Source of the DNA: Aeromicrobium sp.
GTDB lineage: Bacteria; Actinomycetota; Actinomycetes; Propionibacteriales; Nocardioidaceae
DNA: 64,000 nt
NCBI RefSeq assembly: GCF_036675695.1
Contig: NZ_JAKFEL010000110.1
Location: 839 to 64,838 of the forward strand
Direction: 5' to 3'
The notes beneath the pieces are model-generated. The model did no database searches. It was not told the origin of the DNA and was given only the letters and a program-made list of their open reading frames with translations. The translations under genes were made by a program, and so were the position numbers. Below are positions 1,148 to 57,083 of the stretch, piece by piece (positions within the stretch are counted from its first letter, which is position 1; each line of letters begins with the position of its first letter).

Positions 1148-1289
1148 TCACGAGGTTTCGATACGTCGGCCGCGGGCGGCCTCCTACTCAACCACCGAAG
1201 TGGCGACGTTTCTCGGTGGTTGAGTAGCCTTGGGGGTCCCCCCAGCGAGCGCGGCGAGCGAGGGGGCGGGACGAGAGCGTATCGAAACC
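1148..1289. repeat. REP-like inverted doublet R1 (A unit reverse + long B unit forward)
   Basis: GGTTTCGATACG 1154-1165, CTACTCAACCACC 1184-1196, spacer, GGTGGTTGAGTAG 1215-1227, CGTATCGAAACC 1278-1289. Confidence 0.9.
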
Positions 1290-1344
1290 TGGTGAGCCGA
1301 CGAGCTTGCTGTACTTGATCTGGCCCTCCATCGGGGCGATGATG

Positions 1345-1368
1345 GAAACCGAACGATCATTCGGTTTC
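1345..1368. promoter_or_regulatory. Palindromic operator upstream of paaA, probable TetR/PaaR site
   Basis: GAAACCGAA-CGATCA-TTCGGTTTC, perfect 9-bp arms, 13 nt before the paaA start. Confidence 0.7.
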
Positions 1369-1381
1369 TGGAGGCGGTTCC

Positions 1382-2323
1382 GTGCAGGACACAGCAGAGC
1401 TCGGCGATCCTGAGTTCCTCGCACTGCTCGACCACGAAGGCCGCATCGAGCCGCGTGACGCGATGCCCGACGCGTACCGCAAGACCCTGATCCGCCAGAT
1501 CGCCCAGCACGCGCACTCGGAGATCATCGGCATGCAGCCGGAGGGCAACTGGATCACCCGCGCCCCGAGCCTGCACCGCAAGGCGATCCTGCTCGCCAAG
1601 GTGCAGGACGAAGCCGGTCACGGCCTCTACCTCTACGCCGCAGCCGAGACCCTCGGCATCGACCGTTCCGAGCTCCTCGATGCTCTGCACGAGGGCCGCC
1701 AGAAGTATTCCTCGATCTTCAACTACCCCACCAAGAGCTGGGCTGACATCGGAGCGATCGGTTGGCTGGTCGATGGTGCCGCGATCGTCAACCAGGTGCC
1801 GCTGTGCCGCTGCTCGTACGGGCCGTATGCGCGCGCGATGATCCGGATCTGCAAGGAGGAGTCGTTCCACCAGCGCCAGGGCTTCGATCTGCTCCTCACG
1901 CTCAGCAACGGCACTCCCGCACAGCACGCGATGGCGCAGGACGCCGTCGATCGCTGGTGGTGGCCGAGCCTGATGATGTTCGGCCCGCCCGACGCCGAGT
2001 CGCCCAACTCCGCGCGCTCCACTCGCTGGGGCATCAAGCGGTTCAGCAACGACGAGCTGCGTCAGCGGTTCGTCGACATCGCTGTGCCGCAGGCCGAGGC
2101 GCTCGGACTCACACTTCCCGACCCTGACCTGCGCTGGAACGCCGTGACCGAGCACTGGGGCTTCGGCGAGATCGACTTCTCCGAGCTGTACGACGTCATC
2201 GCCGGCAAGGGCTACTGCAACGACGAGCGCATGGAGCGCCGCACCACAGCGCACAACGACGGCGAATGGGTACGCGAGGCCGCCATGGCGTACGCCGCCA
2301 AGAAGGCCGAGGCAGCAGCATGA
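1382..2323 (+). CDS. paaA: Phenylacetyl-CoA epoxidase catalytic subunit A
   Basis: [52 protein letters not shown] di-iron motifs. Confidence 0.95.
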
Positions 2324-2601
2324 CCGCCTTGCCCCTCTGGGAAGTCTTCGTACGCCCCAAGCGCGGCGTCTCGCACGTACACGCCGGCAGCCTGCACGCG
2401 TCTGACGCCGAGAGCGCTCTGCGCAATGCTCGCGACGTCTACACCCGCCGCGGCGAAGGCGTGTCGATCTGGGTCGTTCCTGCCTCCGAGGTCACCGCCA
2501 GCAGCCCGGACGAGAAGGAAGCTTGGTTCGACCCCGCTGCCGACAAGATCTATCGCCACCCCACGTTCTATGACGTGCCCGATGGGGTTGAGCACCTGTG
2601 A
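2320..2601 (+). CDS. paaB: Phenylacetyl-CoA epoxidase subunit B
   Basis: [38 protein letters not shown]; ATGA overlap with paaA. Confidence 0.95.
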
Positions 2602-3254
2602 ACCTCACCCTCGAGCTCGCCGATGATGCGTTGATCCTGTCGCACCGCTGCAGCGAGTGGCTGACTCGTTCGCCCGAGATCGAACTCGACATCGCCTTCG
2701 GCAACATCGGTCTGGACCTGCTTGGTCAGGCTCGCAGCCTGTACGCGCTGGTTGGCGACGAGGACCGGCTTGCCTATCACCGCGATGCTCCCGAGTGGCG
2801 CAACTGCACACTCGTCGAGCTCCCCAACGGCGACTTCGCGTTCTCGATGATGCGACTGCTGGCCTTCGCGTCGTACGAGTGCGCGTTGTTCCGTACCGAT
2901 CCTGACACCGACGAGCTGCGGGCGATCTTCGCCAAGGCGGCCAAGGAGGCGGCCTACCACCTCGAGCACGCCGAGGCCTGGGTCCTTCGACTCGGCGATG
3001 GCACCGACGTCTCGCACGGTCGTATGCAGGATGCCGCAGACGCCGTGTGGCCGTTGCTGACCGAGCTCTGCTCGTCGGCGCCCGAGGTCGAAGCCGCCGT
3101 ACGCACGCAGCTCGCTGCGATCCTGACCGCTGCAACACTCACCGTGCCAACCGCGGCTGCCCCCACGCAGCGTGGCGAACACACCCCGCACCTGGCGGAG
3201 CTGCTCGGCGAGATGCAGTCGCTGGCCCGCGAGCATGAGGGCGCCACATGGTGA
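2598..3254 (+). CDS. paaC: Phenylacetyl-CoA epoxidase subunit C
   Basis: LADDALILSHRCSEW..PEIELDIAFGNIGLDLLGQAR; KEAAYH. Confidence 0.92.
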   Translation: MNLTLELADDALILSHRCSEWLTRSPEIELDIAFGNIGLDLLGQARSLYALVGDEDRLAYHRDAPEWRNCTLVELPNGDFAFSMMRLLAFASYECALFRTDPDTDELRAIFAKAAKEAAYHLEHAEAWVLRLGDGTDVSHGRMQDAADAVWPLLTELCSSAPEVEAAVRTQLAAILTAATLTVPTAAAPTQRGEHTPHLAELLGEMQSLAREHEGATW

Positions 3255-3712
3255 CCCTCGCCGACGCACGCACGCGGATCGAAGCCGTCGTCGATCCCGA
3301 GCTGCCGTTCGTGACCATCGCCGAGCTCGGAATCCTGCGCGACATCGCAGTCGACGGCGATCACGTCAACGTCACGATCACGCCGACCTACTCCGGCTGC
3401 CCGGCGATGTCGGCGATCGAAGAAGACATCCGCGCTGCGATGGACGGCATCGACGTCAGCGTCGAGACAGTCCTGTCCCCCGCCTGGACCACCGATTGGA
3501 TGACAACGGCGGGCAAGACCAAGCTCCACGCCGCCGGCATCGCCCCGCCCACGCATCACGCTGGCGCGATCCCGCTGACCCTGTCCGTGCGTTGCCCGCA
3601 GTGCGGATCGACGCGTACGAGCGAGATCTCGCGCTTTGGGTCCACCAGCTGCAAGGCGCTGTGGCGCTGCGACGACTGCCTCGAACCGTTCGACTCGTTC
3701 AAGGTGCTCTGA
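3251..3712 (+). CDS. paaD: Phenylacetyl-CoA epoxidase subunit D (older name PaaJ)
   Basis: DPELPFVTIAELGILR, TPTYSGCPAM, C-terminal CPQC...CKALWRCDDCLEPFDSFK. Confidence 0.92.
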   Translation: MTLADARTRIEAVVDPELPFVTIAELGILRDIAVDGDHVNVTITPTYSGCPAMSAIEEDIRAAMDGIDVSVETVLSPAWTTDWMTTAGKTKLHAAGIAPPTHHAGAIPLTLSVRCPQCGSTRTSEISRFGSTSCKALWRCDDCLEPFDSFKVL

Positions 3713-4752: not shown

Positions 4753-4761
4753 CCGCGCATG

Positions 4762-4791
4762 CGGAAGGCCCGGCCGAAGCCGGGCCTTCCG
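4762..4791. terminator. Hairpin between convergent paaE and membrane-protein gene
   Basis: CGGAAGGCCCGGC-CGAA-GCCGGGCCTTCCG, 13-bp perfect stem. Confidence 0.75.
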
Positions 4792-4805
4792 TCAATGCTG
4801 AGTGG

Positions 4806-5279
4806 TCACGCCGCAGGCGGAGTGTCCTTCTTGTTGAGGTCAGGCATCTTCTCGCCCGAAGCCTTGAACAGAGCGACGGATGCCACTGAAAGGACGACCG
4901 CCGAAATTACTGTGACAAATCCGGACCAACCGGGGTCAAGGTCGACACCAAACTTCGACGCCGTAAACAAACGAAGTACTAACAGCAGAGTTCCAAGGAC
5001 GGCCGCCGCCGCTCCTACGAGGTTCCATGGCACCCCATCGGGCAGAGTCGCCGGCGCCAGCAACCTTACGACTACGACAGCGATGGCCACCACGATCAAC
5101 AGCATTGCCAGAAAGCCGATCCCGCCCCACGCACTCTCGCCGTACACTGTGTCGCCCGAAAAACCAGGGACTCCTTCGACTGACAGAGATACAAACCGAC
5201 TGATGAACGAGAAGACCAGTGTGACTCCACCAGAAATCAGCGCCGCCTGTTCAAATTTGCCCAAAGACTTGAAGTCCAT
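4806..5279 (-). CDS. Hypothetical 4-TM membrane protein
   Basis: ORF from MDFKSLGKFEQ with four hydrophobic segments. Confidence 0.7.
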   Translation of the reverse strand: MDFKSLGKFEQAALISGGVTLVFSFISRFVSLSVEGVPGFSGDTVYGESAWGGIGFLAMLLIVVAIAVVVVRLLAPATLPDGVPWNLVGAAAAVLGTLLLVLRLFTASKFGVDLDPGWSGFVTVISAVVLSVASVALFKASGEKMPDLNKKDTPPAA

Positions 5280-9505: not shown

Positions 9506-9578
9506 GCAAACCCTCCCTCGGGCCGAACATAACGTCTTGCAGGGCCATTCGCGGCCGATCAGCCGCTAGATTCAGGCC

Positions 9579-16036: not shown

Positions 16037-16124
16037 GGGTTTCGATACGCTCGTTCCTCGCTACTCAACCACCTGGTGGTTGAGTAGCGAGGCCGCCCGC
16101 GGCCGACGTATCGAAACCTCGTGA
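16037..16124. repeat. REP-like inverted doublet R2 (B reverse + A forward)
   Basis: GGGTTTCGATACG-CTCGTTCCTCG-CTACTCAACCACC-T-GGTGGTTGAGTAG-CGAGGCCGCCCGCGGCCGA-CGTATCGAAACC-TCGTGA. Confidence 0.92.
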
Positions 16125-17289: not shown

Positions 17290-18777
17290 ATGCCTGCAAC
17301 ACTCTCGGATCGCTATCGCCTGGACGCTCTCATCGGCGACGGCGGCATGGGCGAAGTGTGGAAGGCACACGATCCGGTGCTCGATCGCGTCGTCGCCGTG
17401 AAGGTCATCCGGCCGCATCTTGCCGGCGACACCAGGATCCGCGAGCGACTCCGTACGGAAGCGCAGCTTGCTGGGTCTCTGCGCCATCCCGGCATCGTGG
17501 ATGTCTTCGACTACGGCGAGCACATCGACGGCGACGGCCGTACGACGCCGTACCTCGTGATGCCGCTCGTTGATGGCGTCACGCTGTCGGAAGTCCTCGC
17601 GTCACGGGGTTCCTTGCCGCTCGGCGAGACCATGTCGATCGTCGCTGAGATGGCGAGCGCACTCCAGACCGCCCACGGGGCTGGCATCGTGCACCGTGAC
17701 CTCAAGCCCGCCAACGTGATGCTCACCGCGTCCGGCCGGGTGATGATCCTCGACTTCGGCATCGCCCGATCGACGGGTGGCGAGTCGCTGACCCAGACCG
17801 GCGCCATGGTCGGCACCGCCGACTACCTCAGCCCGGAGCAGGCTGCGGGCCACCCGGCGACGTACGCCTCCGACCTGTACGCGCTCGGCATCGTCGCGTA
17901 CACCTGCCTCACCGGCGCTCCCCCGTTCCGTCGTGAGACTGATGTCGGTACGGCGCTCGCGCACCTGCATGAGCCAGTTCCGCCCCTGCCTTCCGAACTG
18001 GCGATGGCTGATCCGCTGATCCGGTCGCTGCTGTCGAAGGAGCCGACGCATCGACCCTCCGCCGGTGACGTGGCCGCGATTGCGGCGACGATGGCGACAC
18101 GTCTGCCCACCACCAGCAAGAACAGCACCGAGCACACTCGTACCGACCTGACCCCGCTGCCTCGAGACGACCGTGACACGACGGCGACCATTGACATCGT
18201 TGATGCCAAGCGCCGTCGCCCGCGCAGGGCGCTGTGGATCGCTGCAGCCATGCTCGCGCTGGTCGGCGTGCTCGCTGGCGGATTCGCGTATGCAAACCGC
18301 CCCGTCAAGATCGCGGTGCCGAATGTCGTCGGCATGTCCAGTGTCGAGGCCGCTTCCACCCTCGGCCGTGCCGACCTCACGCTCGAGACCCGCGAGGCCA
18401 ACGTCGCAGGTCACAAGGCAGGCGAGGTCATCAAGCAGTCGGTCAAACCCGGCACCGAAGTTGGCGAGGACGCTCTCGTCGAGCTCACGGTTGCCACCGG
18501 CCTGTTTGCCCTGCCCAAGGATCTCGTCGGCAAGCCGTACGACGAGGCCGCAGCTGCTCTGGAGGATCTCGGACTCAAGGTCAACAAGGCGCAGAAGCTC
18601 TCGCAAGAAGAGTCCGACACCGTCCTGTCGGTCGACCCCTCGGCTCTGGCGAAGGCTGGCGACACGATCACGCTGACGGTGTCCTACTCGTTCTTCGACT
18701 TCGACTTCAACGGCGATGACGACGACCGAGACCGCGACCGCGACCGGGACAAGAAGAACGACGACGACGACGACTAG
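17290..18777 (+). CDS. Ser/Thr protein kinase with TM and two PASTA domains (kinase 1)
   Basis: IGDGGMGEVW, VAVK, HRDLKPANV, DFGIAR, GTADYLSPEQ; TM; VPNVVG/LPKDLVG PASTA repeats. Confidence 0.92.
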   Translation: MPATLSDRYRLDALIGDGGMGEVWKAHDPVLDRVVAVKVIRPHLAGDTRIRERLRTEAQLAGSLRHPGIVDVFDYGEHIDGDGRTTPYLVMPLVDGVTLSEVLASRGSLPLGETMSIVAEMASALQTAHGAGIVHRDLKPANVMLTASGRVMILDFGIARSTGGESLTQTGAMVGTADYLSPEQAAGHPATYASDLYALGIVAYTCLTGAPPFRRETDVGTALAHLHEPVPPLPSELAMADPLIRSLLSKEPTHRPSAGDVAAIAATMATRLPTTSKNSTEHTRTDLTPLPRDDRDTTATIDIVDAKRRRPRRALWIAAAMLALVGVLAGGFAYANRPVKIAVPNVVGMSSVEAASTLGRADLTLETREANVAGHKAGEVIKQSVKPGTEVGEDALVELTVATGLFALPKDLVGKPYDEAAAALEDLGLKVNKAQKLSQEESDTVLSVDPSALAKAGDTITLTVSYSFFDFDFNGDDDDRDRDRDRDKKNDDDDD

Positions 18778-18862
18778 TCACCCAGGTTGGTGGTTGAGTG
18801 ACATGCGGGAATGTTCGTTTGGCCGGGTTTGTTGAATTGGTTGTAGTCAACGAAAGGCAGTC

Positions 18863-19249: not shown

Positions 19250-20371
19250 CTACTTCAGGGCGTCGAGCACTGCGCCGGTGAAGCTGTTGGGTGAGATCAC
19301 GGTCTGATCCGTCGGCATGGTTCCCATGCGTACGGCCACGACGCCCTTGGACGGCACGACCGAGATGATCTGCTTGCCGAAGCCGAGCGCCCAATAGGCG
19401 TCATCGGGCGCCCGCGGGGCAAGCTGGCCGACGTACGCGTTCTCATCGTTGGTCGAGCCCGTCGCGGTCAACGCGCCGAGTACCGTCCCGGACCGGTTGA
19501 CCCACCACAGCAACCCATACGCGGCGTTGAGCTCGGTGGACGACTTGCCGGTCGCCTCGCCGAGGTAGGTCTCAGAGACGATCCGCTTGCCGTTCCACTC
19601 GCCCCCGCGCATCGTCATGAGGCCGAATCGCGCAAGGTCGAGGCAGGTCGACGAGATGCCCGCGTACGTCGACGTGTGCAGCGATCGATCAGGGATCCAC
19701 GTGGTGTTGGACATGCCGAGCGGACCGAACAGGTGTGTTGCCGCATACGCAGCCGGCTCCTGCCCGGTCGCCGCCCTCAGCACCGCAGCGAGGGTTTGGA
19801 TCGCTGAGTTGTTGTAGTGCCAGACGTTGCCGGGTTCGGCGTCTTGCTTGAGCCCGACGGCGAAGGCAGTCTTGTCGACGGCGCGGGCTGCCATACCGAT
19901 GTAGTCGGTCTCGAAGTCCCAGTGACGACCTGAGTCGTTGGACAGCAGGTTGCGGATCGTGACGTCTTCGGACGGCGTGCCGATCCATTCGGGGATGTAC
20001 TTCGATGCCTTGTCGTCGAGCGACAACTTGCCCTGGTCTTGGGCGATGCCGACGAGAACTGACGTGAACGACTTGGTCACCGAGAACACCGGCTTCTTGG
20101 TGTCGGCCTTGGATCCGCGCCAGTACTTCTCATGCACGAGCTTGCCGTCGCGGGTCACGACCTCACAGTTCGAGCGGTTGCCGGCGAGCAGCCGGTCGAG
20201 CTTCCTCAGCCCCGAGCGCTCGAATCCAGCCCCATCAGGATCGATGGTGTCCCACTGCTCTCCCGGATCCACGGTCGCCGTCGGAACCGGCTTGGGTGCC
20301 GGCGCGTCACCCGAGCAGCCACTGAACAGTGCCATCGCGGCGATGACCGCCACAGCGGCGCGGAACGTCAT
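19250..20371 (-). CDS. Lipoprotein serine hydrolase, beta-lactamase/PBP-like family (copy 1)
   Basis: FSGC lipobox, SVTK (SxxK), YNN (YxN), LDDKASKYIPEW. Confidence 0.85.
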   Translation of the reverse strand: MTFRAAVAVIAAMALFSGCSGDAPAPKPVPTATVDPGEQWDTIDPDGAGFERSGLRKLDRLLAGNRSNCEVVTRDGKLVHEKYWRGSKADTKKPVFSVTKSFTSVLVGIAQDQGKLSLDDKASKYIPEWIGTPSEDVTIRNLLSNDSGRHWDFETDYIGMAARAVDKTAFAVGLKQDAEPGNVWHYNNSAIQTLAAVLRAATGQEPAAYAATHLFGPLGMSNTTWIPDRSLHTSTYAGISSTCLDLARFGLMTMRGGEWNGKRIVSETYLGEATGKSSTELNAAYGLLWWVNRSGTVLGALTATGSTNDENAYVGQLAPRAPDDAYWALGFGKQIISVVPSKGVVAVRMGTMPTDQTVISPNSFTGAVLDALK

Positions 20372-20449
20372 AGTTCATTGTCGCTTGAGGGGCGGTCACG
20401 GCGGCCCGCTCAACAGGAGAAGTCTGCCAATCCGGCATACCGTTGGTCG

Positions 20450-22075
20450 GTGCCCACTATCCTCAGCGATCGCTACCGCCTTGACGCCGTCATCGGCACC
20501 GGCGGCATGGGCGCGGTGTGGCGAGCTCACGACCAGCTGCTCAATCGCGAGGTCGCCGTCAAGGTCATTCGAGACCATCTCGCCGACGATGAGTCGATCC
20601 GCGAACGCCTCCGCACCGAGGCTCACCTGGCTGGCTCGTTGCACCACCAGAACATCGTCGACGTCTACGACTATGGCGAGCATCCCGACGGGCACGGCCG
20701 AACGACGCCCTACCTGGTGATGCCGCTGGTCGACGGCGTCTCGCTGTCCGCGATGCTCAAGTCACGGGTGGCACTGCCGGTCGGCGAGACAATGTCGATC
20801 ATCGGCGAGATGGCGAGTGCGCTTGCCGCGGCCCACGAGGCCGGCATCGTCCACCGCGACCTCAAGCCAGGCAACGTCCTGCTCACGCCGTCGGGCCGGG
20901 TGATGATCCTCGACTTCGGCATCGCCCGATCGACGGGTGGCGAGTCGCTGACCGCAACGGGCGCGCTCATCGGAACTGCCGACTACCTCAGCCCAGAACA
21001 GGCGTCCGGACGTCAGGCCACATACGAATCGGACCTGTACGCGCTCGGGGTCGTTGCCTACACCTGTCTCACCGGCGCTCCCCCGTTCCATCGCGAGACC
21101 GACGTCGCCACGGCCCTCGCGCACATCCAGGCTCCGATTCCCGAGCTGCCGCAGGAGATCTTGGCCTCGGGCATCGGTCCGCTCATCGAGAGCTTGCTCG
21201 CCAAAGAACCCGGTCATCGACCGTCCGCGAGCGAGGTTGCGGCGATTGCAGGCGAAATGGCGACCACGGTGCCGACCGAAGTGGACAGGGCCACTGATCC
21301 CGATGCGACACAACCGGACGGGGTCGCAGCGACTGCAGGCATGGCCGCGGCCGTTGCCTCGACCCAGACGGACCCGATACCGGTGGCCGCGGCGGGAGGG
21401 GCGGGAGTGGCCGCCGCGACCGTTGCAACCGAAGAGGTGCTCCCAGAGCGCCATCGCTCGAGGCGCACCGTCCTGATCAGCTCCGCCTTGCTCGCGATCG
21501 CCGCAGTCGTGTTCGCACTGATGAATCCGTTTGGAGCGAACACGGTCGAGGTACCGGACGTACGCAAGATGACGAGCGTTGAAGCGGCGTCAACACTGGC
21601 GGGCAAGGGACTGAAGGTGACGACGCATGACGTTGACGCTGCGGGCTACAAGACCGGCGTGGTCGTGACTCAGTCACCCGATCCTGGGTCTGACGTGGAC
21701 GAGAACAGCGTGGTGGACCTCGGCATCGCCACCGGACTCGTCAAGATCCCCAAGAACCTGGTCGGCAAGTCATATGAGGATGCCGCGAAGATCTTGGACA
21801 AGCTCGGACTCGAGCCGCAGCGCAACGACCAGCCATCCGGTGAACCCGTGGGCACGGTCACCGCTGTGGATCCCTCCACGCGTGCGGAGCCGGGCACCAA
21901 TGTCGTTCTCACCGTCTCAACTGGGTCTGGCAGCACAGGTTCGGGCAAGGACGAGGACAAGGACAAGAAGAAGGACGACGACAACAACAACGACCCAGCC
22001 CCTGAACCGACGGCACCAGCAACCACCGAACCGACCGAGCCGCCCGTCGAGGAAGAACCGGTGTCGGAGGGGTGA
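20450..22075 (+). CDS. Ser/Thr protein kinase with TM and two PASTA domains (kinase 2)
   Basis: GTG start 20450 (PTILSDRYRL); same kinase motifs as kinase 1; Pro/Glu/Thr-rich tail. Confidence 0.92.
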   Translation: MPTILSDRYRLDAVIGTGGMGAVWRAHDQLLNREVAVKVIRDHLADDESIRERLRTEAHLAGSLHHQNIVDVYDYGEHPDGHGRTTPYLVMPLVDGVSLSAMLKSRVALPVGETMSIIGEMASALAAAHEAGIVHRDLKPGNVLLTPSGRVMILDFGIARSTGGESLTATGALIGTADYLSPEQASGRQATYESDLYALGVVAYTCLTGAPPFHRETDVATALAHIQAPIPELPQEILASGIGPLIESLLAKEPGHRPSASEVAAIAGEMATTVPTEVDRATDPDATQPDGVAATAGMAAAVASTQTDPIPVAAAGGAGVAAATVATEEVLPERHRSRRTVLISSALLAIAAVVFALMNPFGANTVEVPDVRKMTSVEAASTLAGKGLKVTTHDVDAAGYKTGVVVTQSPDPGSDVDENSVVDLGIATGLVKIPKNLVGKSYEDAAKILDKLGLEPQRNDQPSGEPVGTVTAVDPSTRAEPGTNVVLTVSTGSGSTGSGKDEDKDKKKDDDNNNDPAPEPTAPATTEPTEPPVEEEPVSEG

Positions 22076-23939: not shown

Positions 23940-25046
23940 TCAGGAGATGCGCAAGGCCTTCAGGACCAGGTCGGCGAACGCCGAGAACGACAGCTGTTCC
24001 GGGGTGTTGGGGCGCGATCCCATACGTACGGCGACGAGACCCTCGGACGGGATCACCATGACGTACTCGCTGCCGTATCCGAGCGCCCAGAACGTGTCCT
24101 CCGGTGCCTTGGGTGCGAGCTGCCCCTTGTAGGGCGGCTTGTCGCTCGGGAACCCGGCGGCGCGGTCGATCGTGACGATGCGGCCGGGCTTGTTGACCCA
24201 CCAGAGCAGTCCGTATGCGGCGTTGAGCTGCGACGATGACTCGTTGGTGGCTTCGGCGACGAACGAGTCTGAGACGAGCTGCTCGCCCTTCCAGGCACCG
24301 CTTCGCATCATCAGGTAGCCGATGCGGGCGAGATCGCGACAGGACGAGTCGATGCCTGAGTACGTCGTGGTGTTGCCGGCGTTGTCGTGCGCCCAGGTGG
24401 TGTCGCGCATGCCGATCGGATCGAGAAGCCGCTTCTTGGCGTACGCGGCGACATCCTGTCCGGTGGCCTTCTCCAGCACTGCCTCTAGGGTCTGCACGGC
24501 CGAGTTGTTGTAGTCCCACTTGGTGCCGGGTCGGCTGTCCTGGCCGAGTCCGATCGAGAAGGCCGTCTTGTCCGGTGCTCGGCGGATCATCTGGCTGTAG
24601 TCGGTGTTGTAGTCCCAGTGCCGGCCCGAGGTGTTGGAGAGCAGGTCTCGGATCGTGACGTTCCGCGCGGCGGTGCGTCGCCATTCGGGAATGTACTTCG
24701 ATGCCTTGTCATCGAGCGCCAGCTTGCCCTCGTCGGCGGCGATGCCCACAAGGATCGCAGTGACGGACTTGGTGATCGAGTACGCAGGCCGCGTCGAGCC
24801 TTCGCCCGTGCTGTGCAAAAGACGCCCGTCCTTGACGACCGCAAAGCATGTGGTGCGAGCAGCGGCGAGCTCACGATCGACCCTCGCGAAGTCACCCTGT
24901 TCGGCAACAGCCCAGTCCTTGCCCGGGTAGATGAACGTCGGCGTGGGAGTCTGCGTCTGCGTAGTCGGCTCAGCAACCGGCTTCTCAGGCTCACTCGAGC
25001 AAGCCGCCAGCAAGACAAGAGCAACCACAGCAGCGACAGCACGCAT
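23940..25046 (-). CDS. Lipoprotein serine hydrolase, beta-lactamase/PBP-like family (copy 2)
   Basis: LAAC lipobox, SITK, YNN, LDDKASKYIPEW shared with copy 1; ATG 25046. Confidence 0.85.
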   Translation of the reverse strand: MRAVAAVVALVLLAACSSEPEKPVAEPTTQTQTPTPTFIYPGKDWAVAEQGDFARVDRELAAARTTCFAVVKDGRLLHSTGEGSTRPAYSITKSVTAILVGIAADEGKLALDDKASKYIPEWRRTAARNVTIRDLLSNTSGRHWDYNTDYSQMIRRAPDKTAFSIGLGQDSRPGTKWDYNNSAVQTLEAVLEKATGQDVAAYAKKRLLDPIGMRDTTWAHDNAGNTTTYSGIDSSCRDLARIGYLMMRSGAWKGEQLVSDSFVAEATNESSSQLNAAYGLLWWVNKPGRIVTIDRAAGFPSDKPPYKGQLAPKAPEDTFWALGYGSEYVMVIPSEGLVAVRMGSRPNTPEQLSFSAFADLVLKALRIS

Positions 25047-25058
25047 GGGCCGACCGTA

Positions 25059-25330
25059 TCTCGCTGGTTGAGTAGGAGGCCGCCCGCGGCCGACGTATCG
25101 AAACCACGCAACACAACAGGCTCGCTCAAGCATCTCGACTCACCAGGTTTCGATACGCCCTCGTCCCCAGGGCTACTCAACCACCGAGATGCCACCGTCT
25201 CGCTGGTTGAGTAGGAGGCCGCCCGCGGCCGACGTATCGAAACCAAGCAACACAACCGGCTCGCTCAAGCATCTCGACTCACCAGGTTTCGATACGCCCT
25301 CGTCCCCCAGGGCTACTCAACCTCCGAGAT
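25059..25330. repeat. REP-like array R3: four alternating units, a 139-bp tandem duplication
   Basis: A-fwd, 40-nt linker, B-rev, linker, A-fwd, linker, B-rev; TCTCGCTGGTTGAGTAG starts at 25059 and at 25198. Confidence 0.92.
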
Positions 25331-27372: not shown

Positions 27373-27421
27373 GCTGGTTGAGTAGGAGGCCGCCCGCGGC
27401 CGACGTATCGAAACCCCGTGA
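27373..27421. repeat. REP-like single A unit R4
   Basis: GCTGGTTGAGTAG-GAGGCCGCCCGCGGCCGA-CGTATCGAAACC-CCGTGA. Confidence 0.9.
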
Positions 27422-39581: not shown

Positions 39582-40283
39582 TCAGTGGAACGTGTCGTTC
39601 GCGTTCTTGTTGGTGACCGCGAAGTCAAAGTTGTCCTTGTCCACGTCGTCACGGTTCGCCTGGCTGTGCTCGATGACGTCCTTCACGGCGAACTTGTCCT
39701 TGCCCTGACCGCCGGTCAGGTGGTCGTAGACCGGGTTGGTCTCGTGCGACTCGAGGGTGTCATCGCCGGCCTCGCCGTTGAGGTTGTCCTTGCCCTCACC
39801 TCCGTTGAGGTAGTCGTTGCCGTCGCCGCCGCGCAGCTCGTCGGAGCCGTCGTTCGCTCCGCCGAAGCTGACGAGAGTGTCGTTGCCCTCTTCGCCGCGG
39901 ATGGTGTCGCCGCCGGAGCCACCGTCGATGTAGTCGTTCTCGGTGCCGCCCATGATGAAGTCGTCGCCGGCTTCGCCATAGACAACGTCCTTGCCGCTGC
40001 CGGAGTAGATGTCGTCGTTGCCGTTGCCGCCGAAGACGGTGTCCGCGCCTTCACCGGGGTAGACCACGTCGTCGCCGCTGGAGGCGAAGATCGTGTCGTT
40101 GCCGGAGGTGCCGTAAATCTTGTCGTCACAGGCAGTGCCGTACGTGGTCTTGCCGGCCTTGGCGATGATGATGTTGCCGTCGGTGCAGGCAGCCTGGGCT
40201 GCGGTGCCAGTGACGGTCACGCCGACAACGGAGATGGCGCCGGCGAGAGCCAGTTTGGCGATGATGCGAGTGGTGTTCTTCAT
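39582..40283 (-). CDS. Secreted calcium-binding protein with RTX/hemolysin-type nonapeptide repeats
   Basis: Signal peptide ending AQA; repeated GGxGxDx(I/L)x units. Confidence 0.85.
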   Translation of the reverse strand: MKNTTRIIAKLALAGAISVVGVTVTGTAAQAACTDGNIIIAKAGKTTYGTACDDKIYGTSGNDTIFASSGDDVVYPGEGADTVFGGNGNDDIYSGSGKDVVYGEAGDDFIMGGTENDYIDGGSGGDTIRGEEGNDTLVSFGGANDGSDELRGGDGNDYLNGGEGKDNLNGEAGDDTLESHETNPVYDHLTGGQGKDKFAVKDVIEHSQANRDDVDKDNFDFAVTNKNANDTFH

Positions 40284-40571
40284 GATGATGTCCTTAGCTG
40301 AGTTGGTAGCTCCGGACATTTGCCGGGCTCACGTGTAAGAGCACCGGCCAACCAAAACCTTTCAACAATTTCCACGTTAGTTTCGAATCAGTGGCACCAG
40401 GGGTACGGCGAGCGGTCCGGCTACACCACGGTCGCACTCTATGACTCGGTCAATTCGGGCGTGGTCGAGAGCCAATCAATGCCGGCGACGCTGCGTGATC
40501 GCGACAAGTCCACATCTTCGGCAACCATGAGCAGTAGCATCAGTGACTGCCACCCAATCGAGAGCCTGTCT

Positions 40572-52848: not shown

Positions 52849-52990
52849 CACTGTACGCCGCAGGTGTGGCCCACGCAACACAATTGCAGTAGGCGCCCAC
52901 AGTTTTTCTGGGGTTCCCTGAAACCGCAGGTCAAAGCCAATTTGAGCGGCGAAATTGCGGCGTGTCGGATGCTCAATCGAGCCCTCCGAC

Positions 52991-53174
52991 TCACGGGGTT
53001 TCGATACGTCAGCCGCGGGCGGCCTCCTACTCAACCACCGGTGGTTGAGTAGCGAGGAACCAGCCCGTATCGAAACCTCATGAGGTCACTCCGCGACGCG
53101 CTTTCGAGATGGTGGCATGGACTCGGTGGTTGAGTAGCCGCGAGGAACGAGTGGCGTATCGAAACCTCGTGAGG
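52991..53174. repeat. REP-like doublet (A rev + B fwd) plus single B unit, upstream of GIY-YIG gene
   Basis: Doublet 52991-53085 with zero-spacer centre ACCACCGGTGGT; single unit 53125-53174. Confidence 0.92.
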
Positions 53175-53240
53175 TCGAAGGCTCGCTCGACTGTGGATGG
53201 CCGAGTCGCTTCGATCACCGAGCTCATCCATGCTCGCCCG

Positions 53241-53543
53241 ATGATGGGCGGGTACATGTACATCCTGAGGTGCTCTGACGACAGTTACTACGTCGGCAGC
53301 ACCATCAACATCCTCTTTCGCATGCAACAGCACCAAGACGGCGAGGGCGCTGCGTACACGAAACGACGCTTGCCCGTTGAACTCGTCTACTGCCTGCCTT
53401 GTGAGTGGATCGTCCAGGCGTTCTGGTTCGAGAAGCGCGTCCAAGGATGGTCCAGGGCAAAGCGCAAAGCGCTCATCAGCGGCGACCTGCATCTTCTGCC
53501 CGAGCTGGCGAAGAAGAAGTTCCCCAAGCGAGTTGCAGAGTGA
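53241..53543 (+). CDS. Small GIY-YIG nuclease (UPF0213/YhbQ-like)
   Basis: GYMYILRCSDDSYYVGST, conserved Arg/His (RMQQH), FEK..QGWSRAKRKALI; -10-like CATGCT 6 nt before ATG 53241. Confidence 0.88.
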   Translation: MMGGYMYILRCSDDSYYVGSTINILFRMQQHQDGEGAAYTKRRLPVELVYCLPCEWIVQAFWFEKRVQGWSRAKRKALISGDLHLLPELAKKKFPKRVAE

Positions 53544-53544
53544 C

Positions 53545-53640
53545 CTCACGAGGTTTCGATACGTCGGCCGCGGGCGGCCTCCTACTCAACCACCGGTGGT
53601 TGAGTAGCCGCGAGGAACGAGCGGCGTATCGAAACCTCGC
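53545..53640. repeat. REP-like doublet (A rev + B fwd) immediately after the GIY-YIG stop
   Basis: CTCACGAGGTTTCGATACG...CTACTCAACCACCGGTGGTTGAGTAG...CGTATCGAAACC, starting 2 nt after TGA. Confidence 0.92.
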
Positions 53641-53651
53641 GGTGCGGATGG

Positions 53652-54203
53652 TTAGCCGGGTGGGCGGGAGTCGGCTGTGGCGTTGGGGCAGAGCACCTCG
53701 CGCGGAGATCCTGAGTGGATCTGCTCAGGCAGGGCGATGACGACCGTGCGCTTCACGAAGGCGCTGCTGGTGCGCAGGTGCACATCCTTGACGAAGCTGC
53801 CTGCGCGAGACGACAGTCGCTCGCACGCCGTCATGAACAGCGACAGCGTGACCAGCCGGCGGTCCCCCGCACCGACCGTGAACTCTGACTTGTCGCCGGA
53901 CTTGAGCGACTTGTAGTCGAACAGCGTCGGCTTCACCTTGGGCTGCGCAATGCCCTCGACCTTGATCGGCAGCAAACCGTCGTTGACCAGCTCGAACGTG
54001 TAGGTGAGCGTCTTGCGGTCGGCATACCGGATCTGGCGGATCGTGTCCTCGCCGATGTCGAACACCGCCGAGGCTTCAGTCCCCTTGACGCTTGTCGGAC
54101 CGGCAGCAGTGAGCGAGGGAGAGAACCCCGCGTACGCCGGGGCAGCTCCCAGAACCAGCGCCCCGGCGACGAGACCCCCTGCGATGACCTTGCGAGAAGG
54201 CAA
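53652..54203 (-). CDS. Hypothetical secreted protein
   Basis: Signal peptide ending AYA; 2 nt from the upstream beta-helix gene, so probably co-transcribed. Confidence 0.7.
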   Translation of the reverse strand: MPSRKVIAGGLVAGALVLGAAPAYAGFSPSLTAAGPTSVKGTEASAVFDIGEDTIRQIRYADRKTLTYTFELVNDGLLPIKVEGIAQPKVKPTLFDYKSLKSGDKSEFTVGAGDRRLVTLSLFMTACERLSSRAGSFVKDVHLRTSSAFVKRTVVIALPEQIHSGSPREVLCPNATADSRPPG

Positions 54204-54205
54204 CG

Positions 54206-56050
54206 TCAGCTCCGCGCACGACGACGCTGAGCGATGCGCTGCATGCCTACTGCCGCAAGGCCAAGACCGACCAGGATCGCGGCTCCCGGAGACGAGCCAC
54301 CGGTCGACGACAGGACACCGACGAGCGGGCCTTCCGTACGAGCGTCAGTCGGCTGCGCGGGATCCTTGAACCAGCTGCACAGCGGCGGGTTCCGCCACTG
54401 CGGGTCAGCACGGTTGTACTGGCTGCAGGTCAGGAATCCAGCGTCCTTGACGATCAGACCGGGCAGCAGCTTGGAGCCGCCTCCAGCACAGGATCCGGGA
54501 TTGATCACGAAGTTGTGGGTCGCCTTGCCGCGGGAAGACTTGTTGTTCTCCCAGCAGTTGCCGGTGCCCTGGTCATCCCACCAGTGATCCATGCCGTTGT
54601 GGGCGATCGTGCCGTCAGCCTTGATGCCCATGGTGTTGTTCTTGACCTGGTTGCCGTGGGACGTGTCGAACAGCTTGCTCGGGTCGAACTCGTCACGCAG
54701 CGGAGCCGGGACCCAGAACTGCATGGTGCCGTAGCGCCAGTTGTTGTAGATCCGGTTGTTGTCGGTGAGGTTGAAGTTGCCGCCAGCGATCAGTACGCCG
54801 GTGCCAACGGGTGTCGGGATGACCGGGCAGACGGTGCCGTTGATGTAGCCGCGTTCCTTCATCGGCTTGGCGCAGATACCCGTATGGACGTACTTCTTGA
54901 AGTAGTTCTGGTTGTTGCTGAAGATGTCGTTGTATGCCCACCGTGCGTGGTCCTGCGGGAGGCCGGGGTGGCCCGGGAACAACGAGTCCGTCGCGATACC
55001 AGTGGCGTTCTCGTAGAACTTGTTGTGGTGTGCGTAGACCGAGTTGCCGGCGGTGCCGGAGTAGCCCAGCGCGTTGTGGTGGCTCTTGTTGTTGCGGATC
55101 TCGATCGCGTAGCGCTTGACCGCGATCGTCTTGCTGTCAGCGTTGAGGTCGGACGCCGAGCCGGGGTAGATGCCCGAGTCGCCGTTGTAATAGGCGTCGA
55201 CGTTCTGGATCAGTCCGTGATCGCTGGCGAACGCGAGGATGCCGTACTCGTCATTGCCTCGAGCGACGACCTTGTCGACCAGGAAGCCATCGGTCTCCAG
55301 GACGTAGACGGCGTTGAACTCAGCCTGCTGCACCGTGAAGTTGCGGAACACGATGCCGTTGACACGGTCGGTGCGGATCGCGTTGAGCTTGCTGAACTTG
55401 TTGTCGATCACGACGTCCTTCATGCTGCGACCGGTTCCGACGAGCTGCGTGCCGCAGAACTGGTTGTTGCACTTGATCGACGTGTCGTCGGGGGTCTTGT
55501 CGCCCATGATCGCGATGAGGTTCAGGTTGTGCGGGCACTTGACCTGGTCGGCGTATGAGAGAGCAATCGGGCCGTCGCCGTATTCTGCGGCGGGCTGCTC
55601 ACCGACGAGGCTGCCGATGTATTGGGTGAGCTGGTCACCGAGCGGGTTGGTGCTGATCTTCTTGATCGACGCGCAGTAGCCCTCGGGCTTGCTGTTCGCG
55701 TACTTCGACTCAAGGTAGGTGCCGGGGAGGATGTAGATCGACGTCTTGGGCACCTTGATGCTGTTGATCGCGTCCTGGATCGAGCTGTAGTTGCACTTGT
55801 TGAGCAGCTGCTTGTTGCGGGTCTTGAGAGCACCGCTCGGCATGTTGGCGATGAGGGCACTGCTCTTGCTCGTACAGACGACTCGATAGTGGTCGTTGTA
55901 CAGCCCCTTGTACGTAGGCACCGTGCCGGTGCCGTCAGGGAACGATGCCGCCCGCTCCTCGTGTGCGCTCGCGGGAGCGGCGATGAGAAGACTGCCGAAC
56001 ATCGTGGTGACGATGAGAGCGAGCAGGGCAAAGTACGAGCGAGTGCGCAT
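54206..56050 (-). CDS. Secreted right-handed parallel beta-helix protein with C-terminal anchor
   Basis: Signal peptide, PbH1-like repeats (YNGDSGIYPG, HNKFYENATGI), C-terminal hydrophobic + RRR tail; ATG 56050. Confidence 0.78.
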   Translation of the reverse strand: MRTRSYFALLALIVTTMFGSLLIAAPASAHEERAASFPDGTGTVPTYKGLYNDHYRVVCTSKSSALIANMPSGALKTRNKQLLNKCNYSSIQDAINSIKVPKTSIYILPGTYLESKYANSKPEGYCASIKKISTNPLGDQLTQYIGSLVGEQPAAEYGDGPIALSYADQVKCPHNLNLIAIMGDKTPDDTSIKCNNQFCGTQLVGTGRSMKDVVIDNKFSKLNAIRTDRVNGIVFRNFTVQQAEFNAVYVLETDGFLVDKVVARGNDEYGILAFASDHGLIQNVDAYYNGDSGIYPGSASDLNADSKTIAVKRYAIEIRNNKSHHNALGYSGTAGNSVYAHHNKFYENATGIATDSLFPGHPGLPQDHARWAYNDIFSNNQNYFKKYVHTGICAKPMKERGYINGTVCPVIPTPVGTGVLIAGGNFNLTDNNRIYNNWRYGTMQFWVPAPLRDEFDPSKLFDTSHGNQVKNNTMGIKADGTIAHNGMDHWWDDQGTGNCWENNKSSRGKATHNFVINPGSCAGGGSKLLPGLIVKDAGFLTCSQYNRADPQWRNPPLCSWFKDPAQPTDARTEGPLVGVLSSTGGSSPGAAILVGLGLAAVGMQRIAQRRRARS

Positions 56051-56120
56051 GAAGCCTCCGTGACGTTGCACCAACAACGACGGGGTGTGACTGAGAGTTA
56101 CGAAGAACGGCCGCGGGAAG

Positions 56121-56327
56121 CTAGCGCTTGCGGGTGCGCTCGTCCGGCGACTTGTAGGTGCCCGTCGTATGACGCGCCATCAGCAGCTGCTCGTTGCCTT
56201 TGCCGGCTTCCTGGACGAACTTGATCGCCTGGGCGCCGCGCAGCACCGTCGCCTCGTGGCCGTGATGCGAGATCACGACCTCCTTGCCGCGGACCTCCCA
56301 CGAGTAGCCGCTCGGCCGGCCCTTCAT
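56121..56327 (-). CDS. Small hypothetical protein
   Basis: 68 aa, ATGA-coupled to the upstream amidotransferase gene. Confidence 0.6.
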   Translation of the reverse strand: MKGRPSGYSWEVRGKEVVISHHGHEATVLRGAQAIKFVQEAGKGNEQLLMARHTTGTYKSPDERTRKR

Positions 56328-57004
56328 ACGCTCACGCCCAGGTAGTGGAGCGCTGAGTCGGTGAGCTTGTGGGCAGCGATGCGACTGCGTGCCTCGTTCT
56401 CGTGTGCCTGGCGGATCAGGTCCTTCTCGTCGACACCGCCGTCACCGTAGTAGCCCTCGTTGACCCAGCGCTCGTACGTCGCGGCGGTCACCTCGGGATG
56501 GAACTGCCACGCAATCGCACGTGCGCCGAGCGAGTCGTCGATGAAGCACTGCGTGCCGCGCCAGGACGTACCGAGTACGCGCGCGTTGGGCGGCGGGGCG
56601 AAGACGTCGCTGTGCAGCTGGGCCCACGGTCCCTCGGGGCACAGCACATGATCGACGGTGTCGACCCGCTGCCAGCCGACCTCGGCCATGTCGGCGCGCC
56701 ACGAGGTGCCGCCGAGTGCGCGAGCCATCAGCTGGGCGCCGTAGCAAATGCCCATGACCGGGGTGTCGTCGCGAAGCGCCGCGCGTACTAATGCCGACTC
56801 GGCTTCGACGACGTCTTTCCATTTGGGTTCATGAGCCGAACGGTCGGAACCAAGCAGCAGGATCAGGTCGGTGTCGCCGATCGAGTCATATGGCGCGAGC
56901 TCGTCGCGATCGAGCTGGACGATCTCGCCGCCGAGCTGCTCCAGGCGTTCGACGACGAATCCGCCGTCAGAGTCGACGACGTCAGCAATGACATGAATCC
57001 GCAT
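56324..57004 (-). CDS. Type 1 glutamine amidotransferase-like protein
   Basis: LLGS, GICYGAQL nucleophile elbow, QFHPE; ATG 57004. Confidence 0.85.
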   Translation of the reverse strand: MRIHVIADVVDSDGGFVVERLEQLGGEIVQLDRDELAPYDSIGDTDLILLLGSDRSAHEPKWKDVVEAESALVRAALRDDTPVMGICYGAQLMARALGGTSWRADMAEVGWQRVDTVDHVLCPEGPWAQLHSDVFAPPPNARVLGTSWRGTQCFIDDSLGARAIAWQFHPEVTAATYERWVNEGYYGDGGVDEKDLIRQAHENEARSRIAAHKLTDSALHYLGVSV

Positions 57005-57034
57005 GCACCCATCCTCCCACTCGGTGCCTACCTC

Positions 57035-57083
57035 GGTGGTTGAGTAGGAGGCCGCCCGCGGCCGACGTATCGAAACCTCGTGA
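57035..57083. repeat. REP-like single A unit R6
   Basis: GGTGGTTGAGTAG-GAGGCCGCCCGCGGCCGA-CGTATCGAAACC-TCGTGA. Confidence 0.9.

Follow-up and report, generated by a model that had tools for sequence, protein, structure and literature searches.

The closest described system to the one analysed here is Ssn/SRM, in which hairpin repeats lie on either side of the gene for a small GIY-YIG nuclease that acts by cutting single-stranded DNA (Chenal et al., Nat Commun 2025, PMC11893778). SsnA binds its hairpin solely as single-stranded DNA, the cut site being just upstream of the hairpin, and it does not bind RNA (PMC11893778). The SRM consensus is HGTCWYN(0-2)YYVSBRHN(0-5)WNVSBRGN(0-2)RNCYNB, and proteins are assigned to the Ssn clade by CDD cd10448 or by a tblastn E <1e-10 to N. 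meningitidis SsnA (PMC11893778). In a survey of GTAG/CGTC repeats Actinobacteria are not listed (Di Nocera 2013). The general concept is already published (Ssn/SRM, 2025) and the present family, judged by its sequence, does not match that motif: when the SRM consensus was used as a regular expression it matched 0 of the 15 units described below and an SRM flanked the gene in 0 of 79 related loci, and the sole match to it in the window (the whole stretch of 64,000 nucleotides that was analysed) is at 31092 and is unrelated. No printed match to the unit sequence was found in the papers searched, which agrees with the sequence-only reading of this DNA, where no described family with this sequence was known.

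In the 64-kb window the left arm, GGTGGTTGAGTAG, was matched 18 times with at most 2 mismatches compared to 0.82 expected, and the right arm, CGTATCGAAACC, 21 times compared to 3.8 expected; the observed count of either arm was reached in 0 of 100 shuffles. A full unit was defined as a left arm paired with a right arm, GGTGGTTGAGTAG-[11-50 nt]-CGTATCGAAACC, and this pairing yielded exactly 15 units in six clusters where about 1 unit is expected by chance (Table 1), the same number and the same six clusters as in the sequence-only reading. These 15 repeats are genuine copies of a small hairpin-folding DNA element. They occur singly, head-to-head, tail-to-tail and in arrays with alternating orientation, and the clusters are all intergenic, lying between tandem, convergent or divergent genes, which upholds the earlier view that the units are not simple terminators. 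The data support a repeat family that is dispersed and extragenic and is organised like REP/BIME elements. The two copies of the duplicated doublet (25059-25168 and 25198-25307) are 98% identical, and their cluster (25059-25330) is flanked by divergent beta-lactamase-family and GntP genes. The 3' extension beside 11 units is conserved at 62-71% and its GAG can pair with CTC 5' of the left arm. In type A units the core is GTAG-GA-GGCCG-CCCG-CGGCC-GA-CGTA; GTAG had been described as directly preceding the GC hairpin, but a GA dinucleotide intervenes between GTAG and the GGCCG stem. Two partial remnants had also been reported, near 18789 and 60348. These sites (18789 and 60346) have the left arm only, with 2 mismatches and no right arm, and they cannot be told from chance, the expectation per window being about 0.8 matches of this kind and the number observed outside units three. 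The stop codon that the second of them was said to supply is there, the TAG at 60356-60358 being the stop of the BrkB/YihY-family ORF.

Table 1. Repeat units, an example of the 3' extension and the nuclease gene in the window
Feature	Position	Strand	Context
Type A unit, variable part GAGGCCGCCCGCGGCCGA	1154..1196	(-)	between TetR-family gene and paaA
Unit with long variable part, 50 nt	1215..1289	(+)	head-to-head with 1154-1196 unit, 18 nt apart
Type B unit, CGAGGAACGAG	16038..16073	(-)	found by arm pairing
Type A unit	16075..16118	(+)	head-to-head with 16038-16073 unit, 1-nt spacer; convergent GSDH gene downstream
Type A unit	25063..25105	(+)	first in 139-bp doublet that is tandemly duplicated
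Type B unit, CCCTGGGGACGAGGG	25146..25185	(-)	tail-to-tail with 25063-25105 unit, 40-nt spacer
Type A unit	25202..25244	(+)	second doublet copy
Type B unit	25285..25325	(-)	second doublet copy
Type A unit, solitary	27373..27415	(+)	between gluconokinase-like gene and SNF2 helicase gene
Type A unit, one stem change	52997..53039	(-)	left edge of GIY-YIG cluster
Type B unit, degenerate	53040..53077	(+)	head-to-head with 52997-53039 unit, no spacer; missing in 96%-identical relative L320
Type B unit	53125..53166	(+)	74 nt upstream of GIY-YIG gene, on the gene's strand (usual upstream position)
Gene for single-domain GIY-YIG nuclease, 100 aa (MMGGYMYILRC...KRVAE)	53241..53543	(+)	PF01541, 1ZG2
Type A unit	53552..53594	(-)	8 nt downstream of GIY-YIG gene, opposite strand (usual downstream position)
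Type B unit	53595..53636	(+)	head-to-head with 53552-53594 unit, no spacer
Type A unit, solitary	57035..57077	(+)	between divergent GATase and PhoD genes
Lineage-specific 3' extension (example), TCGTGAG..GGCTCG..	57078..57107	(+)	beside 57035-57077 unit

The largest cluster, 52,991-53,640, contains a GIY-YIG gene that is bracketed by inverted units. Its product matches the GIY-YIG superfamily both in Pfam (PF01541, E 6.5e-13) and in the PDB (1ZG2, E 1.5e-10), and among 18 aligned sequences the catalytic-type residues Y17, R27, H31, and E64 are invariant and Y7 is conserved in at least 90%. The sole Pfam match covers residues 3-73, and the protein consists of a catalytic domain of about 80 aa and a short basic tail, with no separate DNA-binding domain. 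It is 38-40% identical to BH0048 over 79 aa, with a G-x-GA-x-YT segment in common, and 26-32% identical to the protein of the NTS-flanked Ssn-type gene of locus L252, and is nearer to UPF0213. When the L252 protein was used as a stand-in for N. meningitidis SsnA, it had 32% identity and an E of 4e-5 to the window protein and reached 6e-11 to some members of the clade.

The association of this gene with the repeats was examined in 79 loci retrieved with the GIY-YIG protein. Homologs that are 57-60% identical adjoin units in loci L051, L063, and L113. Long-form units lie directly beside the gene in about 35 of the 79 loci, and a long unit or a short form, N5-GAG-x-YCGA-N5', lies within 400 nt of it in 60 loci and on both sides of it in 35. 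The density of the generalised motif was 3.8 per kb near the gene compared to 0.20 per kb further off, which is a 19-fold local enrichment. The nearest upstream unit was on the strand of the gene in 23 of 25 loci and the nearest downstream unit was on the opposite strand in 21 of 26. The sequence-only reading had proposed looking for RAYT, DUF559 or GIY-YIG genes that co-occur with the units, and it is the last of these that is found bracketed by them. The long form, GGTTGAGTAG...CGTATCGAAACC, occurs in Actinomycetota, Chloroflexota, and Treponema, and the short form, for example CTGAGCCTGTCGAAG, in Bacteroidota, Pseudomonadota, Verrucomicrobiota, Nitrospirota, and others. Among the 80 matches listed, the exact arms were found in at least 39 Actinomycetota, at least 32 Chloroflexota, and at least 9 Treponema loci; the arms are conserved over three phyla and the hairpin varies even inside one genome. 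The NTS-flanked gene of L252 has an architecture like that of the GIY-YIG locus in the window. The explanation that we favour is that the units are probably the cognate sites of the 53241-53543 nuclease together with dispersed copies that have no gene, resembling the Ssn/SRM pairs.

A unit can form one extended hairpin. Its outer stem, GGTT/AACC, is lengthened by flanking bases, and inward of it the tandem pairs G·A/A·G (GA...GA) are followed by a G-C pair, after which a T is bulged out; T-A and A-T pairs come next, then a G is bulged out, and one more G-C pair leads into a stem whose sequence is free. At the first four positions of this variable stem, 73-87% of the 324 distinct units have Watson-Crick pairs, and a C-GNA-G triloop is frequent as its cap, predominating in the short units. 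In two alignments 89.3% and 88.5% of the cells were paired, and 10 and 8 pairs were changed on both sides. The observed percentage of paired cells, number of cells changed on both sides and covariation score were reached in 0 of 500 shuffles and the observed number of pairs changed on both sides in 0 and 1 of 500, and slid controls were merely 30-47% paired. GTAG lies within what appears to be a continuous helix, its T and A pairing with the A and T of CGTATC, and its T and the flanking G have compensatory support: the T-A pair is replaced by G-C in 5 sequences, the A-T pair is replaced by G-T once with no other change, and the GAGGAG variant has a CGTCTC partner in every case. These compensatory changes support a single extended hairpin. 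Covariation with a fold does not separate RNA from single-stranded DNA. The 27373 unit with its flanks folds as the full extended hairpin with a DNA MFE z of -2.1; it is the sole exception in single-sequence DNA folding energy, where most units were no better than shuffles (z -0.5 to +0.2). The GGTTGAG strand is predicted to be more stable than its complement by just 0.8-2.0 kcal/mol, and the pair types do not tell which strand is active, since both G·T and A·C are rare.

Such a fold could also be that of a structured RNA, an mRNA stabiliser, processing site or small RNA, with a regulatory association to the GIY-YIG gene, and the covariation would back this as readily as single-stranded DNA. 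RNA motifs often contain tandem G·A pairs and bulges. On the other hand, stable DNA mini-hairpins are classically characterised by C-GNA-G triloops and Y-GA-R tandem mismatches. G·U-type pairs are merely about 1-4% of the stem pairs, the window has no Rfam match at the gathering score and chance matches only at E up to 10, and the units lie in both orientations relative to the neighbouring genes and also between divergent ones. Together with the finding that SsnA does not bind RNA (PMC11893778), this makes an RNA role rather improbable.

The units had also been called REP/BIME-like, and a link to RAYT (TnpA-REP) had been drawn from the layout of GTAG followed by a hairpin. The dispersed extragenic organisation stood and the RAYT link did not. 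If the units were classical REP/BIME elements serviced by a RAYT, a Y1 transposase, whose gene lies in another part of the genome, this would account for the GTAG 5' of a GC-rich palindrome, the extragenic units and the alternating arrays. We regard this as very improbable, since pairing of the T in GTAG is backed by compensatory changes, it is the arms that stay conserved from phylum to phylum and the palindrome that varies freely, REPs behaving oppositely, and the bracketed gene encodes a GIY-YIG nuclease and not a Y1 transposase. A Y1 transposase was found in 0 of the 26 flanking or nearby ORFs scanned in the window. A GTAG/CGTC tag outside the palindrome, as a recognition or cleavage signal, was rejected because GTAG is inside the helix.

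Unit content differs among close relatives and the gene module is missing in some of them. L320, which is 96% identical to the window, has different units on both sides of the gene, and contigs of runs X5 and X6 skip the GIY-YIG gene, with 52995 joined to 53653 and 53023 to 53649, unit sequence being still present at the locus in these alleles. A gene-free empty site was looked for in the case of a solitary unit and none was found. Inverted doublets and the tandemly duplicated 139-bp composite would fit an origin as miniature inverted-repeat elements of an ordinary DDE insertion sequence, yet no transposase lies beside the units, no target-site duplication was noticed at those unit borders whose flanks were read, units often occur singly and the internal sequence varies in a compensatory manner, so that we give this origin hardly any credence. 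Another explanation is that the GIY-YIG gene is a homing-endonuclease-like passenger that cuts at or near the units and copies itself in, the units spreading by some other means; it would then exploit the repeats and not be their source. The gene is always found among units, the X5 and X6 alleles retain unit sequence without it, and in five loci (L145, L173, L188, L198, and L199) the module with short-form repeats lies in frame at the same point of hsdR, all of which a passenger could explain; free-standing GIY-YIG homing endonucleases are also established. This is nevertheless unlikely because the protein has no separate DNA-binding domain of the kind that homing GIY-YIG enzymes carry, no other candidate agent of spread was seen beside the units, and these arms are found together with this protein clade in different phyla.

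Returning to units as cognate sites of the nuclease, the mechanism that we infer is by analogy with SsnA. The nuclease would recognise the folded GGTTGAG... strand in single-stranded DNA, as may arise when DNA is replicated, taken up or repaired, and would nick near the recognised hairpin. Through repair or copying, such nicks may let the units spread and may affect recombination around them. Because the protein is only distantly related to that of L252 and is closer to UPF0213, the properties of Ssn may not carry over to its clade. As an observation that would overturn it, the sequence-only reading had named the units being ends of a known element with a cognate transposase; in effect they do appear as the ends of an element with a cognate enzyme, the GIY-YIG nuclease, but this enzyme is not a transposase and the SRM motif is unmatched. 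A more far-reaching idea, which we hold only tentatively, is that there is a second, UPF0213-like clade of small GIY-YIG nucleases, in at least 7 phyla, that has co-evolved with its own superfamily of tandem-G·A hairpins and that the nuclease itself copies the repeats. If true, single-stranded DNA would here be the substrate of a mobile element that is driven by a GIY-YIG enzyme, is analogous to RAYT/REPIN and can even settle in frame within genes.

When compared to other known systems, the units are like the Rickettsia palindromic elements in that the short-form repeats in the hsdR loci are also short palindromic repeats in frame within protein-coding genes, but the sequences are unrelated and the units in the present window are all intergenic. 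IS200/IS605, where TnpA acts on subterminal single-stranded DNA hairpins, is similar in being strand-specific and in having imperfect hairpins near the ends, which here too would be recognised single-stranded, whereas the units have no Y1 transposase and no identified left and right ends or cleavage tetranucleotides. With REP/BIME-REPIN and RAYT the units share high-copy extragenic palindromes, inverted doublets, alternating arrays and a nuclease gene, present once in the 64-kb window, flanked by inverted units; they differ in that the enzyme is of the GIY-YIG and not the HUH/Y1 class, GTAG is part of the helix and not a free tag, and conservation of the arms extends across phyla, REP sequences being specific to a lineage. 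Among solved or named proteins, those of UPF0213 (B. halodurans BH0048 / PDB 1ZG2, B. subtilis YazA and the E. coli YhbQ family) are closest to the nuclease, and the present clade differs from them by its conserved tail, GWSRAKREALI...LPxLSKK; we know of no described cognate repeat for UPF0213 proteins. The likeness to Ssn/SRM extends to the single-domain GIY-YIG protein of about 94-100 aa with no extra DNA-binding domain, the inverted hairpin repeats that bracket the gene with the upstream one on its strand, a repeat that is scattered outside genes in numerous copies and clusters and is oriented by conserved flanks that are not palindromic, and an exact repeat sequence common to several phyla, with which the NTS scan agrees. 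It is unlike Ssn/SRM in the repeat, NTS being CGTC-hairpin-CYRG and the units folding with tandem G·A pairs and two bulges between an outer and a variable stem; in the protein clade, whose members are 54-78% identical to one another across phyla compared to 26-32% to the L252 protein; and in the hosts, which include Actinomycetota, Chloroflexota, and Bacteroidota. Overall, the system looks like a new relative of the Ssn nuclease/repeat systems and not like a classical REP element.

In the window, which has a G+C content of 63.5% and in which no tRNA genes were found, the left arm of the unit, GGTGGTTGAGTAG, was matched 18 times when up to two mismatches were allowed, against 0.82 matches expected, and the right arm, CGTATCGAAACC, was matched 21 times against 3.8 expected, and for neither arm did any of 100 shuffles reach as high a count. 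When a left arm was joined to a right arm no more than 160 nt away, exactly 15 units in six clusters were obtained, as the sequence-only reading had counted, and the predicted ORFs, together with Pfam searches of the adjoining genes, confirmed that all six clusters are intergenic and that they lie between tandem, convergent and divergent genes alike. The partial remnants at 18789 and 60346 match the left arm alone, each with two mismatches, as expected by chance, and they were therefore dropped as evidence. Eight copies in the window are type A units, GA-GGCCG-CCCG-CGGCC-GA, while type B units have the core GAGGAACGAG, and a 139-bp doublet is tandemly duplicated with 98% identity. In the window's own lineage about 30 nt of a 3' extension are conserved beside the units and the outer stem extends imperfectly as CTC-GGT...TCGT-GAG. 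Literature searches with the exact strings of the arms, the short form and the translated peptides returned chance primer matches only, and a search on GIY-YIG combined with REP returned no match.

Features of the window, with positions where they apply
Feature	Position (nt)	Strand or arrangement	Details
Cluster between TetR-family gene and paaA		tandem	ORFs and Pfam
Cluster between 104-aa ORF without Pfam match (downstream of cold-shock-domain gene) and GSDH		convergent	ORFs and Pfam
Cluster between beta-lactamase-family gene and GntP		divergent	ORFs and Pfam
Cluster between gluconokinase-like gene and SNF2 helicase		tandem	ORFs and Pfam
Cluster between NrdR and unknown gene			ORFs and Pfam
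Cluster between GATase and PhoD		divergent	ORFs and Pfam
GIY-YIG ORF among units	ATG at 53241, within 52880-53720		100 aa
Unit upstream of GIY-YIG gene	53125-53166	gene's strand	74 nt from gene
Unit downstream of GIY-YIG gene	53552-53594	opposite strand	8 nt from gene
RTX nonapeptide-repeat ORF	39582-40319	-	245 aa; Pfam HemolysinCabind, E 1.7e-32
27-nt periodic repeat of the RTX ORF	39669-40086
Paralogous gene pair	17290-18777 / 20132-22075
Paralogous gene pair	19250-20371 / 23940-25133
Putative paralogous pair	30087-30597 / 32799-33309		72-76% identical

An ORF of RTX calcium-binding nonapeptide repeats is visible in the DNA as a periodic repeat. Two paralogous gene pairs lie about 3-5 kb apart, the PASTA-domain Ser/Thr kinase pair with 75% DNA identity over 300 nt and the beta-lactamase-family pair with 70-80% identity over several blocks, which suggests an old segmental duplication. 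The similarity of two further segments, one of them a histidine-phosphatase-superfamily ORF, points to another paralogous pair.

An ORF lies among the units of the largest cluster and its product, MMGGYMYILRCSDDSYYVGST..., has a match to the Pfam GIY-YIG domain (E 6.5e-13). Among relatives of solved structure, UPF0213 protein BH0048 is the closest (PDB 1ZG2, E 1.5e-10). No NCBIfam model matches this protein and an exact look-up of it returned no record; the closest named proteins are from Aeromicrobium, with 72-76% identity. The CGTATCGAAACC ends of both flanking units point toward the gene.

When one genome per species was scanned with the pattern TGGTTGAGTAG-N8-38-CGTATCGAAACC, at least 120 loci were found. 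Among the 80 loci listed, 39 were from Actinomycetota (Microbacteriaceae, Gordonia, Nocardioidaceae and Propionibacteriales), 32 from Chloroflexota, mostly Anaerolineae, and nine from Treponema, in genomes of 40-71% G+C, and among the listed matches identical type A units occurred in Aeromicrobium and in Propionibacteriales MAGs. Among the first 120 loci, three (L051, L063 and L113) have GIY-YIG homologs, with 57-60% identity to the window protein, next to their units. A genome search with the window protein gave 337 relatives, of which the best 79 loci were examined. Long-form units, that is two-arm units, lie immediately beside the gene in about 35 of these 79 loci. Upstream, the closest unit shares the strand of the gene in 23 of 25 loci; downstream, the closest one is on the other strand in 21 of 26. 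Arrays of alternating units are up to 15 long. Relatives with 54-62% identity to the window protein in Bacteroidota, Pseudomonadota, Verrucomicrobiota, Nitrospirota and Thermodesulfobacteriota have at their flanks a shortened form of the same core, for example TGGCTGAGCCTGTCGAAGCCA, ACCCTGAGGCTCTCGAAGGGT or ..GAG-CGAAG-TCGA... The sequence-only reading had named GIY-YIG genes among those that might co-occur with the units, and such a gene is indeed bracketed by units in the window, and a generalised pattern covering both the long and the short forms, N5-GAG-X(3-60)-YCGA-revcomp(N5), is found within 400 nt of it in 60 of the 79 loci, with a copy on each side in 35. In these loci the pattern occurs at 3.8 per kb near the gene versus 0.20 per kb farther off. 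The association of gene and repeat recurs across phyla. The protein family is broad, with 980 representatives of 50% identity clusters at E values up to 1e-10. No homolog with more than 60% identity was found in plasmid and phage collections, and thus there is no evidence for a vehicle.

The fold of the unit was specified as 5'-NN-T-GGTT-GA-G-TA-G-[stem/loop]-C-g-TA-t-C-GA-AACC-A-NN, and pairs were counted in two ungapped sets of units of equal length, each with 500 shuffles and slid controls. In the first set of 35 sequences, 89.3% of the cells were paired and 10 pairs had changed on both sides, with 33-46% paired in the slid controls; in the second set of 37 sequences these values were 88.5%, eight pairs and 30-47%. 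None of the 500 shuffles of either set matched the observed percentage paired, number of both-side-changed cells or covariation score, and the number of pairs changed on both sides was matched by none of the 500 shuffles in the first set and by one in the second. The arms are constant and the middle varies from copy to copy, with the stem always formed in the listed loci; the first four pairs of this variable stem are Watson-Crick in 73-87% of 324 distinct units. The bases directly outside the arms also covary (ggTGGTT...AACCacc, gcTGGTT...AACCagc, gtTGGTT...AACCaac). It was found that GAGTAG with CGTATC is exchanged for GAGGAG with CGTCTC, and GGTT/AACC for GGTC/GACC or GATT/AATC; these compensatory exchanges place the T and A of GTAG inside the helix, and the earlier proposal of a REP-like layout, with GTAG followed by a hairpin, is not supported. 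The GA/GA positions, a tandem G·A in Y-GA-R context, and single bulges G and T are unpaired and invariant, and the short units are chiefly capped by C-GNA-G loops (CGCAG 35 times, CGAAG 30 times). C-GNA-G triloops and Y-GA-R tandem mismatches are classic features of stable single-stranded DNA hairpins. The structure rests on covariation because the energies from single-sequence DNA folding were no better than those of shuffles for most units. Judged from these sequence comparisons, covariation shows that the unit can form one extended hairpin with G·A pairs, bulges and a free stem. The GGTTGAG strand is more stable than its complement by 0.8-2.0 kcal/mol and no more, and G·T pairs are as rare as A·C pairs among the 324 distinct units, so that the active strand is not singled out. 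The alternative that the units act as RNA is weakened by the rarity of wobble pairs, by the occurrence of the units in both orientations relative to genes and by the lack of a real Rfam match, at gathering score over the window and at relaxed thresholds over one cluster.

Sequence nearly identical to the window occurs in soil metagenomes. In L320, a JGI metagenome contig, the GIY-YIG protein is 97% identical to that of the window and the region of class II ribonucleotide reductase, NrdR and GIY-YIG genes is 96% identical, and the differences cluster in the repeats. The window possesses one more head-to-head unit upstream, a different 46-nt insert is present in L320, and downstream of the gene the window's pair of units is replaced in L320 by two units of another type. 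Contigs from two soil sequencing runs, of relatives about 95% identical, give gene-less alleles in which 52995 is joined to 53653 with 74 nt between (X5) and 53023 is joined to 53649 with 17 nt between (X6). The units and the gene module turn over rapidly. Among adjacent units, inverted pairs outnumber tandem pairs by 160 to 71 over all loci. No empty site was found for the solitary unit at 27373, where the contigs from related strains are interrupted at the repeat and do not have the gene to its left in common with the window.

Both gene-less alleles lie downstream of NrdR (52995-53653 in the window) and also lack most of the units; X6 retains a truncated unit consisting of the tail arm and half of the hairpin. 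Joints such as that of 53173 to 53552 were not counted as alleles; contigs of the doublet at 25.1 kb had aligned there on the repeat. The similarity between L320 and the window ends where the reductase gene ends (upstream of 49140 in the window), and beyond that gene L320:1-5907 carries HNH_2, N6_Mtase/Eco57I-type and GmrSD genes, a region that looks like a defence island.

Repeats were also found inside coding sequence. At five loci from four phyla (L173:1885-4968, L145, L188, L198 and L199) a GIY-YIG homolog without its own start or stop codon, matched around locus positions 3001-3280, forms part of the reading frame of a type I restriction R-subunit gene (HSDR_N, split ResIII, Helicase_C, EcoEI_R_C), immediately ahead of the DEAH box. 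The short-form repeats that flank this insert are translated as linker peptides (ASTGSAT..., PEPVEG...), in which they resemble the Rickettsia palindromic elements found inside genes. In two Flavobacterium loci (L152 and L155) the frame stays open for 1.5-1.8 kb past the GIY-YIG gene, through the repeats. Peptides translated from the short form (PELVEG, FDKLR) are common in predicted hypothetical proteins, and in-frame repeats contaminate protein predictions; no paper describing these peptides was found in the literature.

The earlier RAYT/REP reading is best replaced by that of a GIY-YIG nuclease/hairpin-repeat system, its activity being predicted by analogy with Ssn, the small GIY-YIG nucleases of Chenal et al. 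2025. Following the Ssn precedent, the nuclease would recognise the folded unit in single-stranded DNA, the recognised strand most likely being the GGTTGAG strand that bears the G·A pairs, and would nick nearby, and copies may spread by copying after nicking. The main rival explanation is that the gene may instead home into units that already exist. A nuclease/hairpin-repeat system of this kind would extend the nuclease/repeat principle to another clade of proteins, to a more elaborate DNA fold, and to Actinomycetota, Chloroflexota, Spirochaetota and Bacteroidota, would account for short intergenic repeats of a very common class, and would bear on the origin of REP-like repeat populations without RAYT transposases. 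It also offers a candidate enzyme and site for site-specific cutting of single-stranded DNA, the site having tandem G·A pairs, two conserved bulges and a free stem.

As described by Chenal et al. (Nat Commun 2025; PMC11893778), Ssn are single-domain GIY-YIG proteins of about 94 aa (CDD cd10448). Hairpin repeats, named NTS for Neisseria and SRM more generally, flank their genes and number in the hundreds. One strand, and this in single-stranded form only, is bound and cut by the enzymes, just upstream of the hairpin, and the repeat-gene-repeat layout is likened in the paper to IS200/RAYT-REP. Nuclease/hairpin-repeat pairs were first described in that 2025 paper, chiefly in Gram-negative bacteria and with a single type of motif; Actinobacteria are not named in its main text, and none appear in a published survey of GTAG/CGTC-tagged REPs. 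The exact Neisseria NTS, CGTCATTCCCGCGMAVGCGGGAATC, was found at L200-L319, loci from Alpha-, Beta-, Gamma- and Deltaproteobacteria, Dehalococcoidia, Bacteroidota, Planctomycetota, Terriglobia and others, and like the window unit it stays identical in every letter from one phylum to another. At one locus from this genome scan, L252 of Sphingorhabdus, NTS(+) and NTS(-) enclose the gene for a 94-aa GIY-YIG protein, which served as the Ssn-type comparison; this protein and that of the window share 26-32% identity (E 4e-5), whereas identity is 54-78% within the window clade and 38-40% between that clade and UPF0213 BH0048. Membership of the units in SRM was considered and rejected, the SRM consensus matching none of the 15 units and flanking the gene in none of the 79 homolog loci. 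What is new here, as far as sequence can tell, is that the fold is distinct and that the repeats make up a wide family that had not been connected before. The SRM mismatch and the identity values together indicate that the window system has the same architecture as Ssn, while its repeat is different and its protein probably belongs to another clade.
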